Assembly (NCBI GenBank): GCA_945867255.1
Contig: CAMBHV010000001.1
Coordinates: 1 to 34,807, forward strand
Source of the DNA: an uncultured Clostridia bacterium
Lineage (GTDB): Bacteria > Bacillota > Clostridia > Oscillospirales > Ruminococcaceae
DNA length: 34,807 bases
Reading direction: 5' to 3'
Shown here: one piece after another, positions 2,651 through 34,783 of the stretch
Layout of the letters: every line of letters begins with the position of its first letter
Position numbering within the stretch: position 1 is the first letter of the stretch
Program-made: the position numbers and the translations under genes
Notes under the pieces: generated by a model
What the model was told of the DNA's origin: nothing
Seen by the model: the letters and a program-made list of their open reading frames with translations, nothing else
Databases searched by the model: none

Positions 2651-3202
2651 ATGGAAAAAACATGTGTATTTCTCGCTGACGGTTTTGAAGAGGGGGAAGC
2701 ATTGATCCCTGTTGACCTTCTCCGGCGTGCTGGCGCGCACGTAACAATGGCAAGCATTTCTTCTTCTCTGGCCGTACAGGGCTCGCATGGCATCACCGTG
2801 CAGGCAGATGCCTTGGCAAGCAGTCTTTCGCTGGATGAATTTGGCCTGCTTGTTTTGCCCGGTGGAATGCCGGGCACACTGAATTTGTTGAAAAGCGAAT
2901 TGGTAAAACAAACGGTGCTGCAGTTTGCACAGAAAGAAAAATGGGTGGCCGCCATATGTGCCGCCCCCAGCATCTTGGGTGAACTGGGGCTTCTACAAGG
3001 CAGAAAAGCCACATGTTACCCCACTGCAGAAGAAAAGTGTACCGGCGCACTCCTCACACGGGAAGAAGTTTGCACAGATGGCCATTTCATCACTGGCCGT
3101 GGCCTCGGCGCAGCCATCCCGTTTGCTCTGACATTGGTAAATGTTGTCGCCGGCCCGGCTGATCGTCAGCGCATCAAGGACGCTATCGTATATCCATACT
3201 GA
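2651..3202 (+). CDS. DJ-1/YajL/PfpI family glyoxalase-deglycase
   Basis: GFEEGEA, LVLPGG, AAICAAP (catalytic Cys), ATCYP, ITGRG; AAGGAG RBS. Confidence 0.92.
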   Translation: MEKTCVFLADGFEEGEALIPVDLLRRAGAHVTMASISSSLAVQGSHGITVQADALASSLSLDEFGLLVLPGGMPGTLNLLKSELVKQTVLQFAQKEKWVAAICAAPSILGELGLLQGRKATCYPTAEEKCTGALLTREEVCTDGHFITGRGLGAAIPFALTLVNVVAGPADRQRIKDAIVYPY

Positions 3203-3347
3203 AACTTGTCTGTGTCAACCGGTCACCTTATAAGCGACCGCTTATTTCCCATGGACAAGCACCACTTCCGTATGACCATTTCGTGTTGGCGCAATTATTC
3301 TGCACGGGTTTTAATCGTACCCGTAAAAACATTTCATGCTTGGCTGT

Positions 3348-3395
3348 ATAAATAAAAGCGCGTCGCTCTGAACAAAGCGCCGCGCTTTCATTTAT
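3348..3395. terminator. Probable bidirectional intrinsic terminator
   Basis: ATAAATAAAAGCGCGTCGCT...AGCGCCGCGCTTTCATTTAT hairpin between convergent genes. Confidence 0.65.
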
Positions 3396-3447
3396 TTGTA
3401 TCCTGGTACAAACTTGCATGCCATTTTGCACACCGGCACACATTCTT

Positions 3448-4008
3448 CTATTCGGCTTCGTTCAGCTTAACCATATGGATATGGTCTTCCCACACACCAT
3501 TGATTTTCAAGTATCTTCTGGCTAATCCTTCTGATACAAAACCATTTTTCTCAACCACACGCAGCGATGCTTTGTTGCGTGGCATGATGTTGGCCTCTAT
3601 GCGGTGCAACCCCAATTGTTTAAATGCATACTGAACCACAAGATGCACCGCATCTGTCATATATCCGTTGTTTTGACACCTCATATCCATCTTATAACCA
3701 AGAAATGCGTTGTAAAATGCTCCCCGCACTATTTCATTCAGCCCAATGCAACCAATCAATTCCTGCGGGCAACTTTTCCGTTCCAAATAAAATCGACACG
3801 CTTTTTGCTCCTGCGCCGCCTGCTGTTCCTGGCGCAACACTTGCTGCTGGCCTTCCAAAGTGAAAAAAGCTGGTGGGCGTTTTGGCTCAAATGGGCTCAG
3901 GAAGTCCCTGTTTCGAATGTAAAATTCCACACATCGCGGTGCCAATGCCTCTTCCGCAGGTACAAGGCGCAGCCTGTCATCCTCCAACACCGGGCATTGC
4001 CGCAACAT
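3448..4008 (-). CDS. GNAT N-acetyltransferase, RimJ/YjcK-like
   Basis: IVRGAF, LGY, GLHRIEANIMPRN..S.RVVEK.GF..EG, YLKINGVWEDH motifs; AGGAG RBS. Confidence 0.88.
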   Translation of the reverse strand: MLRQCPVLEDDRLRLVPAEEALAPRCVEFYIRNRDFLSPFEPKRPPAFFTLEGQQQVLRQEQQAAQEQKACRFYLERKSCPQELIGCIGLNEIVRGAFYNAFLGYKMDMRCQNNGYMTDAVHLVVQYAFKQLGLHRIEANIMPRNKASLRVVEKNGFVSEGLARRYLKINGVWEDHIHMVKLNEAE

Positions 4009-27762: not shown

Positions 27763-29016
27763 ATGGCACAATCACGCGTAATATTCCATTGTGACTGCAA
27801 CAGCTTTTATGCCTCTGTGGAACTTCTTAGCCATCCGGAATTAAAACCTGTACCGGTTGCTGTGTGCGGGGACCCGCAACATCGGCACGGGATCATTCTG
27901 GCAAAAAATGAAGCCGCGAAAAAATTCGGTATTCAAACAGCCGAAACGGTCACCAGTGCCATGCGCAAGTGCCCTCAGCTGACACTTCTGGCACCACACC
28001 ACGAAAAATATCGTGAATATTCCAAACGTATAAATGCCATTTACGCCCGATATACCGAGTTCGTGGAACCTTTCGGGATTGATGAGAGCTGGCTGGATGT
28101 AACGGACTCATGGCACTTGTTTGGCCCTTCGCCCGTGGCAGTGGCACACCGTATCCGCCGCGAGGTAAAAGCGGAAACAGGGCTTACCATTTCGGTAGGC
28201 GTCAGTTTTACCAAAGCTCTTGCCAAGCTTGGTTCCGATTATAAGAAACCAGATGCGGTAACAGAATTCTCCCCTCAGAACTATCGCCAGCTCGTATGGC
28301 CTTTACCTGTAAGCGCACTGTTGTATGTAGGGCAGTCTGCACAGAGTACACTGTCCAGACTTGGCATCTCTACCATCGGCCAGCTGGCTGCAGCCAGCCC
28401 GCAGGCTCTGCAGGACGCACTGGGAAAACTGGGTACGGAACTGCAGGGCTTCGCTCTGGGACAGACTGGCAGCCCCGTTCGCAGCATGTATGAAGTTCGT
28501 GAAATAAAAAGTGTAGGCAACGGCCTTACCTTTCCGAGAGACCTTACCTGCCTGGCCGATGCCCAAGCGGGGCTTGCAGCTCTTTCTGACGAGGTTGCCA
28601 GCCGCTTGCGCGCGCATGAACTGTATGCAGGCGCAGTGCAGATCACAGTGAAGGACTCAAACTTCCATACGATCACACGGCAGGCACAGCTCTCTTCTCC
28701 CACGCACCTCGCACGGGATATTGCACAGCAGGCTGTGGCCCTGTTGAAACAAAACTGGCGCTTTCCCTGCCCCATTCGCATGCTCACCGTCACTGCGCTC
28801 AATGTTTCTCACTGTGCAGCCACTCAGCTTTCCTTATTTGAGCCGGATGCGCAAAGGCGGGATGGGCGACGGGAAAATTTAGAAAAAAGCCTCGATGTCA
28901 TTCGAAAAAAATATGGAAAAAACGCCATTGCCCCTGGTGTTGTGTTGCGTGAAGACATGGGCCTTGGCCATTTGAAAGTAGAACCGCCGCATAAAACGCA
29001 TAAAAAAGGAGAATGA
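27763..29016 (+). CDS. dinB: DNA polymerase IV (Y family)
   Basis: HCDCNSFYASVE, A.N..AKKFGI, EPFGIDES.LD, AKLGSD.KKPD, little-finger domain, QLSLF clamp-binding motif. Confidence 0.94.
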   Translation: MAQSRVIFHCDCNSFYASVELLSHPELKPVPVAVCGDPQHRHGIILAKNEAAKKFGIQTAETVTSAMRKCPQLTLLAPHHEKYREYSKRINAIYARYTEFVEPFGIDESWLDVTDSWHLFGPSPVAVAHRIRREVKAETGLTISVGVSFTKALAKLGSDYKKPDAVTEFSPQNYRQLVWPLPVSALLYVGQSAQSTLSRLGISTIGQLAAASPQALQDALGKLGTELQGFALGQTGSPVRSMYEVREIKSVGNGLTFPRDLTCLADAQAGLAALSDEVASRLRAHELYAGAVQITVKDSNFHTITRQAQLSSPTHLARDIAQQAVALLKQNWRFPCPIRMLTVTALNVSHCAATQLSLFEPDAQRRDGRRENLEKSLDVIRKKYGKNAIAPGVVLREDMGLGHLKVEPPHKTHKKGE

Positions 29017-29316: not shown

Positions 29317-29359
29317 AAAATGTGCCATGCGCCCAGAAACCGGTCGCATGGCACATTTT
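29317..29359. terminator. Bidirectional intrinsic terminator
   Basis: AAAATGTGCCATGCG...CGCATGGCACATTTT. Confidence 0.8.
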
Positions 29360-30072
29360 TATTCTGTCTCCTGCTGTATCTTTTTCTTTTTAGGGGCGGC
29401 GTATTCACCGGGTAATTTTCTGGCGATCAGCGCCTTGATAGGAATGCCCATCTCAGTAAACATGGCCTCATGTTCCGTGCGGATATTCCATTCTGGCTCC
29501 TCTGCATGCAAATCTCGTGTCAGCCAGGTGATTTCAAAGCCCATCTCCTGAAAATAGGCCACAGAATCCTCAAACAGGCCTTCATCATCGCATTTAAACC
29601 ACACTTCACCGCCATCCACAAGAAAGTCCCTGTATTGCTCCAGCTGGCGCGAATGCGTCAAGCGATGCTTTTTGTGGCCTTTCTTCCTGTTCCATGGATT
29701 ACAAAAATTGATGTAGATACGGCTTACGCAATCTTGCGCACTCATCATACCCCGAATGCGCTCAATATCATGGGTCAGAATACGAACATTGTCTACTTCT
29801 CTGCCAGCCGCAGCATAAGCACGATCGATGTTTCTTTTTGTGAGAATCAACACCTTCGGAGTGATGTCGATTCCGATATAATTATTTTCCGGATGCGCCG
29901 CCGCCATCTGGGCCAGAAATTTTCCTTTTCCACAGCCCAACTCCAGCATTAAAGGCTGAGCCGGCCGGGCAAATTGTTCTTTCCATTTCCCGCGGCACAG
30001 CATAGGTTCATCCACACAGAACGGGCAGGCCGCCAGCTCTGGTCCTGCATAGGGCTTAAAACGCATACGCAT
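29359..30072 (-). CDS. trmB: tRNA (guanine-N7)-methyltransferase
   Basis: MRMR.KP, LELGCGKG.F, IYINFCNPW, H.KHRLT, FK.D, TEHE. Confidence 0.93.
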   Translation of the reverse strand: MRMRFKPYAGPELAACPFCVDEPMLCRGKWKEQFARPAQPLMLELGCGKGKFLAQMAAAHPENNYIGIDITPKVLILTKRNIDRAYAAAGREVDNVRILTHDIERIRGMMSAQDCVSRIYINFCNPWNRKKGHKKHRLTHSRQLEQYRDFLVDGGEVWFKCDDEGLFEDSVAYFQEMGFEITWLTRDLHAEEPEWNIRTEHEAMFTEMGIPIKALIARKLPGEYAAPKKKKIQQETE

Positions 30073-30075
30073 AAT

Positions 30076-30693
30076 TCAACCATCCTTTTGTAGGGTATTA
30101 CGGGTTCCCGCCCGCTGCACAAGGCCAATCAGCTGGCCGCTCAAAAGCACTGTCAACAGCGAATAACCCAGTTTGGAAAGTGGGATATATGTGGCCGACA
30201 ATGCCAACACGACAAGATCGCTTGCCAGATATGCCCACTGGATATTCCATTTTGTCAGCTTGCAGATGCTCATGGCCAAAGCATCGTCTCCACCCGGTGC
30301 GCCCCCGGCACGAACTGCCAACCCCACCCCCACGCCTACAAAGCAGGCGCCTGCAAGTGCAGCCAGCAACGGATGCTGCGCAAGGTTGGGCCATAAAGGG
30401 GGAAACTGCTCTGCCAAGGCATAAAACACGGAAAAGCCACCACCCGCCACAATAGAACAGGCAATAAAGCTTTTGCCCAATAGCCGCCAGCCCAGTGCAT
30501 AGCATGCCGCATTCATCACAAAACCAGACACGGCCGGAGAAACGCCAAACCAGTGATACAAAAGCAGCGTCATGCCCAGCACGCCGCCTTCCGTGACACC
30601 ACTAAGGGAATGGACATGATACAGGCCAAATGCCAAAATCCCACTACCTAGCAGCGCCATGGCACACTGTTTCGGCCGGATGAGGGAACGCAA
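30076..30693 (-). CDS. YitT family membrane protein (TM region only)
   Basis: GSGILAFG, EGGVLG, GGAPGGDD; AAGGAG RBS before TTG. Confidence 0.82.
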   Translation of the reverse strand: MRSLIRPKQCAMALLGSGILAFGLYHVHSLSGVTEGGVLGMTLLLYHWFGVSPAVSGFVMNAACYALGWRLLGKSFIACSIVAGGGFSVFYALAEQFPPLWPNLAQHPLLAALAGACFVGVGVGLAVRAGGAPGGDDALAMSICKLTKWNIQWAYLASDLVVLALSATYIPLSKLGYSLLTVLLSGQLIGLVQRAGTRNTLQKDG

Positions 30694-31430: not shown

Positions 31431-31586
31431 TCAGTGGGTGAGGCCGTGTTTCACACGGTCATGTTCTTCTGCTTTCTTTGCATCGTTCCATTTATCCATT
31501 GTACCAACCAGATAACCGGTGATACGGCGAATGCGCTCAAACTTTACATCTTTTCCGTATTTTGCTTCTACATTGGTCTGAATCAT
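31431..31586 (-). CDS. Stand-alone NrdD glycyl-radical domain peptide (51 aa)
   Basis: MIQTNVEAKYGKDVKFERIRRITGYLVGTMDKWNDAKKAEEHDRVKHGLTH. RxxGYL glycyl-radical motif plus N..K..E..DRVKH tail typical of NrdD C-termini. AAGGAG RBS 8 nt upstream; stop 1 nt before the nrdG ATG. Confidence 0.9.
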   Translation of the reverse strand: MIQTNVEAKYGKDVKFERIRRITGYLVGTMDKWNDAKKAEEHDRVKHGLTH

Positions 31587-31628
31587 CCTGCATGCTCCTT
31601 CCTGAAATCTGTTATAACGCATCTCTCT

Positions 31629-31663
31629 ATTGATATAATATATCAATTTATATCATATTTCAA
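31629..31663 (-). promoter_or_regulatory. Putative internal promoter and palindromic operator for the glycyl-radical peptide and nrdG
   Basis: TTGAAA(31663-31658)-17-TATTAT(31640-31635). Perfect palindrome ATTGATATA-A-TATATCAAT (31629-31647) covers the -10. The spacer is very AT-rich. Confidence 0.55.
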
Positions 31664-31677
31664 TAGGTTTCAAAATT

Positions 31678-33966
31678 TTATTCACATCCGCAAAACGTAG
31701 TGATTTCCGGATAACGCTTGCGCAACTCGTCAATGCGCTCTTTGGAAAGGGCTTCGCCTTCCCGGCGCCCACAACGAGGGCAAACTTCCCCGATTACACC
31801 CACGTAGCCACACACAGGGTCGCGATCTACCGGGTGGTTAATGGAGCCATAACCCACACCTGCGTCATGCATGCAACGTACTACGGATTCAAAAGCTTCC
31901 ACATTGTTAGCGGTGTCACCATCCAGTTCCACATAACTGATATGCCCCGCATTTGTCAGCGCATGATACGGTGCTTCTTTATAAATTTTGTCATAAGCCG
32001 AAATGGGGAACCACACCGGAATGTGGAACGAGTTTGTATAATATTCGCGGTCGGTCACGCCCGGGATAATGCCGTAACGTTTTTTGTCCATGCGGATGAA
32101 CCGGCCACTCAGGCCCTCTGCCGGCGTTGCCAGCAACGTAAAGTTCATATGCATGGCCTGGCTCTTCGCATCGCAGAACTCGCGCATATGGCGCACGATG
32201 GCAAGCCCTTTCTGCTGCATCTCATCGCTTTCGCCATGATGATGCCCATATAGTGCTGTCAACGTTTCTGCCAAACCAATAAAACCAATAGACAGTGTGC
32301 CGTGCTTCAGCACTTCACGCACTTCATCATTGGGCCCCAATTTATCGGAATCCAGCCAAACGCCCTGCCCCATCAGGAACGGATAATTGTAAACCCGTTT
32401 GGACGCCTGAATCTCAAAGCGATCCAAAAGCTGCTGGGCCACCAGCTCCATCATATCGTCCAGCTTTTTATAGAACAGGGCTTCGTCACCATGGCTCTCA
32501 ATGGCAAGACGTGGCATATTGATGGAAGTAAAAGAAAGGTTTCCGCGGGAATAGGCAATCTGGCGTTCGGGGTCGTACACATTGCCCATCACACGCGTAC
32601 GGCAGCCCATGGTAGCAACCTCCGTCTCCGGATGGCCGGGTTTGTAATACTGCAGGTTAAACGGACTGTCCAGGAACACATAGTTCGGGAACAGACGCTT
32701 TGCCGACACCTTGCAGGAAAGTTCAAACAAATCGTAGTTCGGGTCGCCCGGGTTGTAGTTAACGCCCTCTTTGACTTTGAAGATATGAATGGGGAAAATG
32801 GGAGTTTCACCATGGCCCAGGCCTGCATCTTCCGCCAACAGGATATTGCGGATTGCCATGCGGCCCTCGGGGGAGGTATCTGTGCCATAGTTGATGGAAG
32901 AAAAAGGCGTCTGTGCGCCAGCGCGCGAATGCATGGTGTTCAGGTTGTGCACAAAGCCTTCCATCGCCTGATAGGTCTCACGGTCTGTTTTTGCCGTGGC
33001 CCGACGGCGCGCATGTGCCACAAGATGGGCCGCTTTTTCGGCGCTCAGCCGTCCAGTCGCCGCAATGGCGCCGGCCGCCGCTGCGTCAAATGTGGCGGCA
33101 TGTGTTTCCAGGCGCACATCGTCATCCCCTGCGGCCTCTTTGCCCGCTGCAATGGCCTGTTCTACCAGAGCCGTTTCATCGTCTGTGTCCAAAATATCTT
33201 CCAGTGCCTCGCGCAATTTGGCACGGTACTGTTTACGGAACGTTTTGCCAACGCCCTCCGCCATGGCGTAATCGAAGTTCGGCGCGCTTTGACCACCATG
33301 CTGATCGTTCTGGTTGGACTGGATGGCAATGGCGGCCAATGCCGCATAGCTGGCGATACTCTGCGGCTCACGCAGATAACCGTGCCCGGTGGAAAAACCG
33401 CCATGGAACAGTTTCAGCAAATCGATTTGGCAACAAGTAGTGGTAAGGGCATAAAAATCGAAGTCGTGGATATGGATATCGCCTTCTGCATAGGCCTTGG
33501 CCTGTGCAGGCGTAAGGAGATACGCTGCATTATAGGCTTTTGCACCCGCGGTACCAATCTGCAACATGGAGCCCATGGCCGTGTTGCCGTCGATATTGGC
33601 ATTGTCACGCTTCATATCGCTGAGCCGGGCATCCACATTGGTGATTTCATCGATGGATTTCATCAGGCTTGTTTTGGCTTCGCGGATACGCGTACGCTCG
33701 GCACGGTACAGGATATACTGTTTCGCAGCCTCCTCGCATCCAGCGCGCATCAGTTCTTGCTCCACTGTGTCCTGAATCTGTTCAATCTTCGGCGTCTCTT
33801 CCCCGCAAAGCTCTTCCAAGCGCTTTTCTACATTATTTGCTACCCGAGCGGCTACGGAAGCATCTCCCTCGCGGGCGGCCTCCAGCGCTTTCAAAATGGC
33901 GGATGCGATCTTGCTTTCATCGTACAACACCACGCGCCCGTCCCGCTTCATAATGCTTTTGATCAT
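31678..33966 (-). CDS. nrdD: Anaerobic ribonucleoside-triphosphate reductase, large subunit lacking the glycyl-radical loop
   Basis: ATP cone (KRDGR), IHIHDFD, TTTCCQ, QHGGQ, SRAGAQTPFSSIN, ATMGCRT, TPAEGLSGRF, YYTNSFH, DRDPVCG...CPRCG. Ends at ...ITTFCGCE with no RxxGY motif. Confidence 0.95.
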   Translation of the reverse strand: MIKSIMKRDGRVVLYDESKIASAILKALEAAREGDASVAARVANNVEKRLEELCGEETPKIEQIQDTVEQELMRAGCEEAAKQYILYRAERTRIREAKTSLMKSIDEITNVDARLSDMKRDNANIDGNTAMGSMLQIGTAGAKAYNAAYLLTPAQAKAYAEGDIHIHDFDFYALTTTCCQIDLLKLFHGGFSTGHGYLREPQSIASYAALAAIAIQSNQNDQHGGQSAPNFDYAMAEGVGKTFRKQYRAKLREALEDILDTDDETALVEQAIAAGKEAAGDDDVRLETHAATFDAAAAGAIAATGRLSAEKAAHLVAHARRRATAKTDRETYQAMEGFVHNLNTMHSRAGAQTPFSSINYGTDTSPEGRMAIRNILLAEDAGLGHGETPIFPIHIFKVKEGVNYNPGDPNYDLFELSCKVSAKRLFPNYVFLDSPFNLQYYKPGHPETEVATMGCRTRVMGNVYDPERQIAYSRGNLSFTSINMPRLAIESHGDEALFYKKLDDMMELVAQQLLDRFEIQASKRVYNYPFLMGQGVWLDSDKLGPNDEVREVLKHGTLSIGFIGLAETLTALYGHHHGESDEMQQKGLAIVRHMREFCDAKSQAMHMNFTLLATPAEGLSGRFIRMDKKRYGIIPGVTDREYYTNSFHIPVWFPISAYDKIYKEAPYHALTNAGHISYVELDGDTANNVEAFESVVRCMHDAGVGYGSINHPVDRDPVCGYVGVIGEVCPRCGRREGEALSKERIDELRKRYPEITTFCGCE

Positions 33967-34094: not shown

Positions 34095-34123
34095 ATATTA
34101 GCACTAGATATTGTGCCGGTCAA
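34095..34123 (-). promoter_or_regulatory. nrdD promoter with NrdR box in the spacer (34101-34116)
   Basis: TTGACC-17-TAATAT with TGn; GCACAATATCTAGTGC matches the acaCwAtATaTwGtgt NrdR consensus. Confidence 0.8.
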
Positions 34124-34234: not shown

Positions 34235-34783
34235 TTGCAGCCGCTGCGCAGAGAGCCCGCACCAGGCATCGTCTATTTCCTTACATATAAAAAAGTAAAA
34301 AACATCAACCTCCGTATTGGCCCGGACGGCCATACACATGTCAGTGCGCCACGCAGAGTCACCCTTGCGCAGGTAGATGCCTTTGTACTTTCCCGGGCAT
34401 CTTGGATTGATCGGGCAAAACAGCGGGCAGCCAGGCAGCGGGCAGCAGATGCCCTGCCGTGTACCGTAACGCCCGCGCAGGCTTTGGATTTGTTTGAGGC
34501 GGTCAGCGATCAAATCTTTCCTCTTTTTGCCACCATTCTAGGGGGGCGTCGGCCAATTCTGAAAGTTCGCCTGATGAAAACGCGATGGGGCGTGTGTACG
34601 CCGGCCAAACATCAAATCACGCTAAACCTTCGCTTAGCGGAAAGGCCCATGGCAGCGGTAGAGTATGTGATTGTGCATGAATATGCTCATTTTGTGCACT
34701 GTGATCATTCCCCCGCATTTTGGGCGGTAGTAGCGAATATTCTTCCCGATTATCAGACACGGCGAGCACTTCTTCGCTTGTAG
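34235..34783 (+). CDS. YgjP-like (M48/SprT-type HExxH) metal-dependent hydrolase
   Basis: KKVKNINLRI, MKTRWGVC, EYVIVHEYAH, HSPAFW; AGGAGG RBS before TTG. Confidence 0.88.
   Translation: MQPLRREPAPGIVYFLTYKKVKNINLRIGPDGHTHVSAPRRVTLAQVDAFVLSRASWIDRAKQRAARQRAADALPCTVTPAQALDLFEAVSDQIFPLFATILGGRRPILKVRLMKTRWGVCTPAKHQITLNLRLAERPMAAVEYVIVHEYAHFVHCDHSPAFWAVVANILPDYQTRRALLRL

Follow-up and report, generated by a model that had tools for sequence, protein, structure and literature searches.

Introduction

Described class III ribonucleotide reductases (RNRs) pair a single-chain NrdD with the activase NrdG, as in P. copri (8P23), Streptococcus thermophilus (9D3X) and phage T4 (1H78). According to the accessible text of two studies, the Gly loop sits in the barrel beside the finger-loop cysteine, and the radical domain, being mobile, swings out so that NrdG can activate it (PMC11226230, PMC12662201). 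Oxygen cuts glycyl-radical enzymes at the radical glycine, and the available portion of a 2026 review that states this names the formate lyases as the sole glycyl-radical enzymes with identified spare parts (PMC13450708). The spare parts of pyruvate formate-lyase (PFL), GrcA/YfiD of E. coli and Y06I of phage T4, are small free-standing radical-glycine proteins, cellular and viral. After cleavage of PFL, YfiD supplies the glycyl radical in trans, and its binding requires the stub left beside the cleavage site; the 2021 paper in question, as far as its accessible text goes, treats spare parts for other glycyl-radical enzymes as an open possibility (PMC8683613). Catalytic RNR subunits encoded by two genes occur in other classes, in the class II pair NrdJa/NrdJb and in NrdA-a/NrdA-b of phage Aeh1, according to excerpts of two papers (PMC9669993, PMC3653736); the detached piece there carries no stored radical.

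Here we analyse a 34,807-nucleotide stretch of DNA from a gut bacterium (the window) with a locus that, judging from comparative genomics, very probably encodes a conserved two-chain class III RNR whose radical glycine resides on a separate peptide acting in trans. By analogy, the locus would work as a class III RNR whose radical carrier is detached in the manner of GrcA/YfiD, yet the carrier is no member of the GrcA family. The locus is a conserved, apparently undescribed two-gene form of a known enzyme. The earlier note on this DNA knew of no such characterisation for NrdD, and our search of full-text literature likewise turned up neither a split NrdD nor a spare part for NrdD, with subscription papers, theses and supplements outside its scope. 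The accessible portions of the following articles contain no mention of split NrdD: PMC9669993, PMC13450708, PMC4390871, PMC3653736, PMC12288474, PMC2795772, PMC11226230, PMC8683613, PMC12662201, PMC4493059, PMC1524935, PMC11528403 and PMC9531940.

Results

The Gly loop is encoded apart from the NrdD body

On the reverse strand of the window, nrdD (33966-31678) encodes a body of 762 aa and ends with a TAA stop at 31680-31678. An AT-rich spacer of 91 nt (29% GC, compared with 54% in nrdD) separates it from the gene for a 51-aa glycyl-radical peptide, which runs from an ATG at 31586 to a TGA at 31431 on the same strand, in a frame offset by +1 relative to nrdD, and is preceded by a Shine-Dalgarno-like AAGGAG (31600-31595) 8 nt upstream of the ATG. 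The ATG of nrdG (31429-30902, reverse strand) lies one base past the peptide stop. Its product, a radical-SAM activase of 175 aa, matches TIGR02491 with 146.8 bits (cut-off 126.1); the cognate activase gene adjoins the peptide gene. Within the spacer, the nrdD frame meets a TGA at 31662-60 and three further stops upstream of the peptide start, and the peptide frame is closed by a TGA at 31655-53; therefore neither a single slip nor a single readthrough can rejoin the two. These coordinates bear out what the earlier note had read from the sequence: an nrdD without Gly loop, the loop encoded by a distinct 51-aa gene that has an AAGGAG to itself and directly precedes nrdG, and stops in both frames. 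The junction, for which that note had wanted independent confirmation, is spanned without gaps by a public contig (X1) that covers 31438-31820 with 5 substitutions, at a depth of 3.7 and possibly from the source sample; X6 derives from the same sample as X1. Contigs X2 and X5, from two other studies, confirm the nrdD stop, likewise gapless, with the peptide outside their reach, and runs X3, X4, X7 and X8 did not span the junction.

The body scored 1072 bits against PRK07111 (cut-off 764) and 604 bits against Pfam NRDD, and its best matches in a fold search were NrdDs. It shares with the single-chain enzymes the ATP cone, the NxN flap (N122-A-N124), the barrel with C178 and the finger-loop C455 (MGCR), as well as the zinc-site region, the adjacent NrdG and, on the peptide, the Gly-loop sequence. 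C455 and C178 are invariant among 40 aligned cores, and MGCRT was found in 70/70 full cores. The zinc-site motif, in a region of low model confidence, comprises D716/C719/C729/C732, that is, three cysteines and Asp716 in place of the first cysteine, a replacement also seen in fused relatives. The earlier note was thus right that the catalytic motifs are kept and the Gly loop is absent; its metal site is refined by the Asp716.

The cut falls within the glycyl-radical domain, past the zinc site and ahead of the Gly loop, and detaches nothing but the loop with its C-terminal tail, in contrast to the single-chain NrdDs, which carry both in cis. Consistent with this position, the body matches profile positions 1-531 of Pfam NRDD and 1-712 of NCBIfam PRK07111, and the peptide matches 531-562 and 709-744, respectively. 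In P. copri NrdD (8P23) the peptide aligns to chain residues 707-738, where its Gly24 corresponds to Gly711 (allowing for a four-residue tag); the in-cis radical glycine of canonical NrdD is absent from the window body. RITGY occurs in 100/100 split-locus peptides, a set collected by means of that motif. At E<=0.1 in Pfam, the peptide matched NRDD only, with no Gly_radical (PF01228) match. It therefore belongs to a different family from GrcA/YfiD, from which it also differs in its length (51 versus 127 aa) and its target, here NrdD. Databases name it plainly "anaerobic ribonucleoside-triphosphate reductase". A second nrdD was not found by tblastn and Pfam in the window genome (G000, 72% complete), and G000, G015 and G023 contain no second NRDD match able to supply the loop in cis.

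Beyond the zinc motif, the body ends in a new C-terminal tail of about 29 residues (31681..31770, reverse strand) with a predicted helix at 742-751. Such added tails of 23-30 residues, partly predicted as helix, characterise the split bodies (27-30 aa among 70 cores, 23-29 aa in the genus), in contrast to the fused forms, which have none; extra residues are found on both pieces at the cut site. The tail is a candidate docking site for the peptide. The idea that it is a relic copy of the Gly loop was unsupported (hhalign 0.8% and 3.4%). A glycine lies within the last five residues of the tail in 69/72 named loci, but in just 18/25 genus loci. No cleavage-site stub like that of PFL was recognisable in the window body (hhalign probability <1%).

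Around these genes, Pfam identified a YgjP-like metallopeptidase (34235-34783, forward strand), a YitT membrane protein (30076-30693, reverse) and a TrmB-like methyltransferase (29359-30072, reverse). The gene at 27763-29016 (forward) presumably encodes a DinB-like polymerase, as recognised from its translation.

The split is conserved and the peptide is under purifying selection

The peptide was present in 24/24 other genus genomes searched, so that with the window the split is found in 25/25, with spacers of 18-450 nt and the three frame offsets distributed 12/7/6. Among 79 named loci of close NrdD relatives, 72 were split, 5 fused and 2 incomplete; with the incomplete ones dropped, 72/77 scorable loci are split. 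In 72/72 split loci the order is nrdD-peptide-nrdG, with nrdG <=100 nt downstream. The spacers of these loci range from 2 to 669 nt, many being just 12-13 nt, show all three frame offsets and are largely unrelated in sequence; every peptide gene has its own SD-like site and start. The nearest named relatives belong to Ruthenibacterium (96% identity), and the same split recurs in the single-contig genome G001 and across families; relatives in culture share it too.

Between the window peptide and its three nearest relatives we counted 22-24 synonymous and 0 non-synonymous changes in 38 conserved codons. The median dN/dS of the peptide, taken across 1180 unsaturated and non-independent pairs, was 0.09. 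Purifying selection on the peptide is strong. Two of the checks proposed in the earlier note, conservation across relatives and dN/dS, thus came out in its favour, and comparative genomics gives good support to its central claim of a natural two-piece class III RNR.

In the class and phylum, NrdD is mostly a single chain, and anaerobic life can therefore do without the split. A quick tree built from 44 of the 79 split cores and 26 fused ones, 70 in total, needed 3 changes; an AU test on 28 rows gave p=0.043, and the starred branches force no change. The shared body tail argues for kinship of the split forms, and the tree appears compatible with one or several origins.

Radical pieces also occur unlinked, duplicated and beside intact NrdD

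The radical piece is unlinked from a truncated nrdD in G579 and G539, where it lies beside a radical-SAM gene, and likewise in G249, G390, G419 and G514, an arrangement that makes sense only if the piece acts in trans. Peptide genes in tandem or in additional copies were detected in G479, G369, G349, G003, G020 and G021. Second copies, tandem or neighbouring, stand in the split operons L250 (G479, 2920-3553), L251, L252 and L089; the L089 copy lies in the spacer behind a promoter-like site and an NrdR-like box. Lone extra peptides away from nrdD and nrdG were seen at L031-L036 in genomes of the window's genus (G003, G020, G021), two of them apparently degenerate.

Among 300 genomes of the class, 86 matched, mostly with fused genes, and 20 loci with short or doubtful frames, when fetched, included 7 split operons. 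In 6/86 class genomes (G054, G056, G173, G188, G275, G320) a Gly-loop protein of 85-95 aa accompanies a full-length NrdD, so that the partner has its own glycine, as for GrcA/YfiD; in G054 its gene is placed between fused nrdD and nrdG. Free-standing Gly-loop proteins beside full-length NrdD also occur in G618 and G547. Of 120 phylum genomes, 97 gave a match over the cut-off, and in 7 of these NrdD ends at profile position 531-535. Six of these seven were fetched, and in each the NrdD is without the loop, which a gene of its own encodes; two belong to the double-cysteine subclass with the order nrdD-nrdG-peptide, and in two the small gene lies with a radical-SAM gene a long way from nrdD.

The longer type was found in 13 of 200 order genomes, and 10 of the 13 also carry the loop in a long frame. 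NrdD of G390, G419 and G514, like that of G249, stops near the glycine position with an eroded version of the first residues of the loop, and G433 and G475, of the same genus as the worn-loop genomes, combine a loop in a long frame with a spare. For the longer type, G433 and G475 may represent a snapshot of a path on which the spare part came first and the in-cis loss second.

The family of 85-100 aa (L196-L202, L240-L249, L264, L266, L269, L270) joins a small beta-alpha-beta-beta N-terminal domain to the NrdD Gly loop; it accompanies NrdD in intact or truncated form and is also found in viral contigs. If NrdD has a true spare part, these proteins are the strongest candidates. A fold search with the N-terminal domain of the 87-aa type was uninformative, with a best Z of 6.3, and the Atlas matches below 0.9 for this type were unnamed NRDD clusters. 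Bodies with the longer partner (L272-L275, L263, L268, L142, L167, L181, L191, L195) often end in a short basic C-terminal stub that resembles the residues just upstream of the radical glycine, as an oxygen-cleaved enzyme would end; those paired with a peptide of about 50 aa mostly have a helical tail at the C-terminus. L262 and L265, with acidic tails, are exceptions to this pattern.

Viral genomes hold further copies. The best 80 of 467 viral matches comprise 59 short frames without nrdD or nrdG within <=6 kb on each side, where a more distant nrdD is possible, 16 short frames with nrdD sequence nearby, at least 2 of them interrupted fused genes, and 5 fused genes. The lone peptide had no PHROGs family at E<=0.01. 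INPHARED returned 17 records, 5 annotated as nrdD and the others unannotated. In the viral contig L146 the usual order is reversed: the peptide gene lies upstream of a truncated nrdD and overlaps it.

Promoter-like sites and NrdR-like boxes

A putative sigma-70-like promoter site lies in the spacer upstream of peptide and nrdG (31635..31663, reverse strand; 10/12 consensus matches, 17-nt spacing), and a 19-nt inverted repeat with 8-nt arms (31629..31647), a candidate operator, covers its -10 element. The promoter-like site is kept in the nearest relatives, and the repeat is similar in the three nearest. Promoter-like sites were found in 11/58 distinct long spacers, compared with 1.4 expected and 1 on the reverse strand, the matches clustering among kin, and were absent from 47/58. 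Such a site is accompanied by an NrdR-like box in four more distant spacers, one of which follows a tandem peptide copy. In some lineages, peptide and activase may therefore be made apart from the body. The promoter-like site of nrdD itself (34095..34123, reverse strand) has an NrdR-box-like motif (34115-34102) between its two hexamers, judged against the NrdR box consensus; the motif recurs in 49/64 relatives and 0 shuffles. The nrdR gene is present in 5/5 congeners and was not found in G000 (72% complete). An intron or structured RNA in the spacer was considered and dropped, as Rfam gave no match over this region at E<=1.

Discussion

The locus encodes a catalytic body and a 51-residue peptide; in the likely arrangement, the peptide docks into the body in trans and can be exchanged. 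With the covalent link gone, the peptide very probably has to act in trans, and because the partner lacks a glycine of its own, it would be obligatory rather than a repair part as GrcA/YfiD is. NrdG likely turns Gly24 into a glycyl radical; by analogy with single-chain NrdD, the Gly loop would insert into the barrel beside Cys455 and pass the radical on, with the 29-residue body tail and the peptide leader perhaps replacing the lost link. Since oxygen cleavage of glycyl-radical enzymes occurs at the glycine, damage would fall on the peptide: oxygen would cleave it alone, at Gly24, and fresh peptide together with NrdG, in this clade possibly from its own promoter, would re-arm the body.

An assembly error or decaying pseudogene in this strain might be suspected with an assembly that is 72% complete and junction contigs of low depth, but it is refuted by conservation: the same split stands in a single-contig genome and across families, with synonymous change saturated and no amino-acid change, and the probability left to it is negligible. 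Conservation of the split and selection on the peptide together make recoding, like error and decay, very unlikely. Phage nrdD genes are often cut by introns, as stated in the accessible part of PMC3653736, and the frames here might be rejoined on the RNA or the ribosome into one ordinary chain by an intron, by bypass, or by frameshift with readthrough. We regard this as most improbable given spacers of 2-669 nt that are largely unrelated and fall in all three offsets, an SD-like site and start for each peptide, extra residues on both pieces at the cut, and the lack of an Rfam match at E<=1. It is equally hard to credit that the body has no activity or obtains its radical from another source, the peptide serving a second NrdD or another glycyl-radical enzyme. 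Other RNRs are indeed present and lone peptides exist, but the catalytic motifs of the body are invariant, the peptide matches the NrdD C-terminus only and not Pfam Gly_radical, and the order nrdD-peptide-nrdG holds in 72/72 split loci.

The alternative that carries real weight accepts the same two-chain trans enzyme and takes the peptide for a fixed subunit that binds once, the fission being neutral or tuning activation and the damaged enzyme being degraded. The many 12-13 nt spacers suggest coupled 1:1 synthesis and, with the promoter missing from most spacers, point to plain co-translation; neutral splits are known from NrdJa/b and phage Aeh1 NrdA (accessible text of PMC9669993, PMC3653736). 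YfiD-PFL binding needs a stub, and the window body, with no recognisable one, counts against replacement. Duplicate, unlinked and virus-borne lone copies, and relatives beside intact NrdD, on the other hand, fit a useful extra peptide better, and together with the promoter-like site they lend indirect support to a disposable peptide. On balance we find two-chain action with replacement of the peptide after oxygen damage plausible and slightly favour it; the fixed subunit seems the less probable of the two, with perhaps a one-in-three claim.

Whether class III RNRs own a widespread undescribed family of such pieces, comprising spares beside intact NrdD, obligatory exchangeable subunits as in the window and phage-borne lone copies, seems to us evenly balanced. 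If they do, this would be the first spare-part system outside the formate lyases and the first glycyl-radical enzyme with its radical always supplied in trans. It would suggest how gut anaerobes and phages sustain DNA synthesis through oxygen exposure, and would account for thousands of short proteins in the databases (6810 clusters of 28-90 aa, of which some are surely fragments). The locus makes the spare-part question directly testable with a synthesisable 51-mer, and the peptide would be a natural small substrate with which to see how NrdG engages the buried glycine.

A class I/II-type RNR is also present in G000 and in 4/4 relatives tested, and we therefore rejected an argument from essentiality of the split NrdD. 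Its large subunit in G000 (C88:4182-6302) has an ATP cone and is cut off where the contig ends; in G001, the family that matches it is class I alpha and comes with a beta subunit. G001 and G058 contain a second NrdD. The second, different NrdD of G001 has an in-frame TGA at the expected zinc-site cysteine (L236:4419-4421), with a Gly loop and a glutaredoxin-like tail in frame past it; this TGA may be selenocysteine, a nonsense change or a sequence error.
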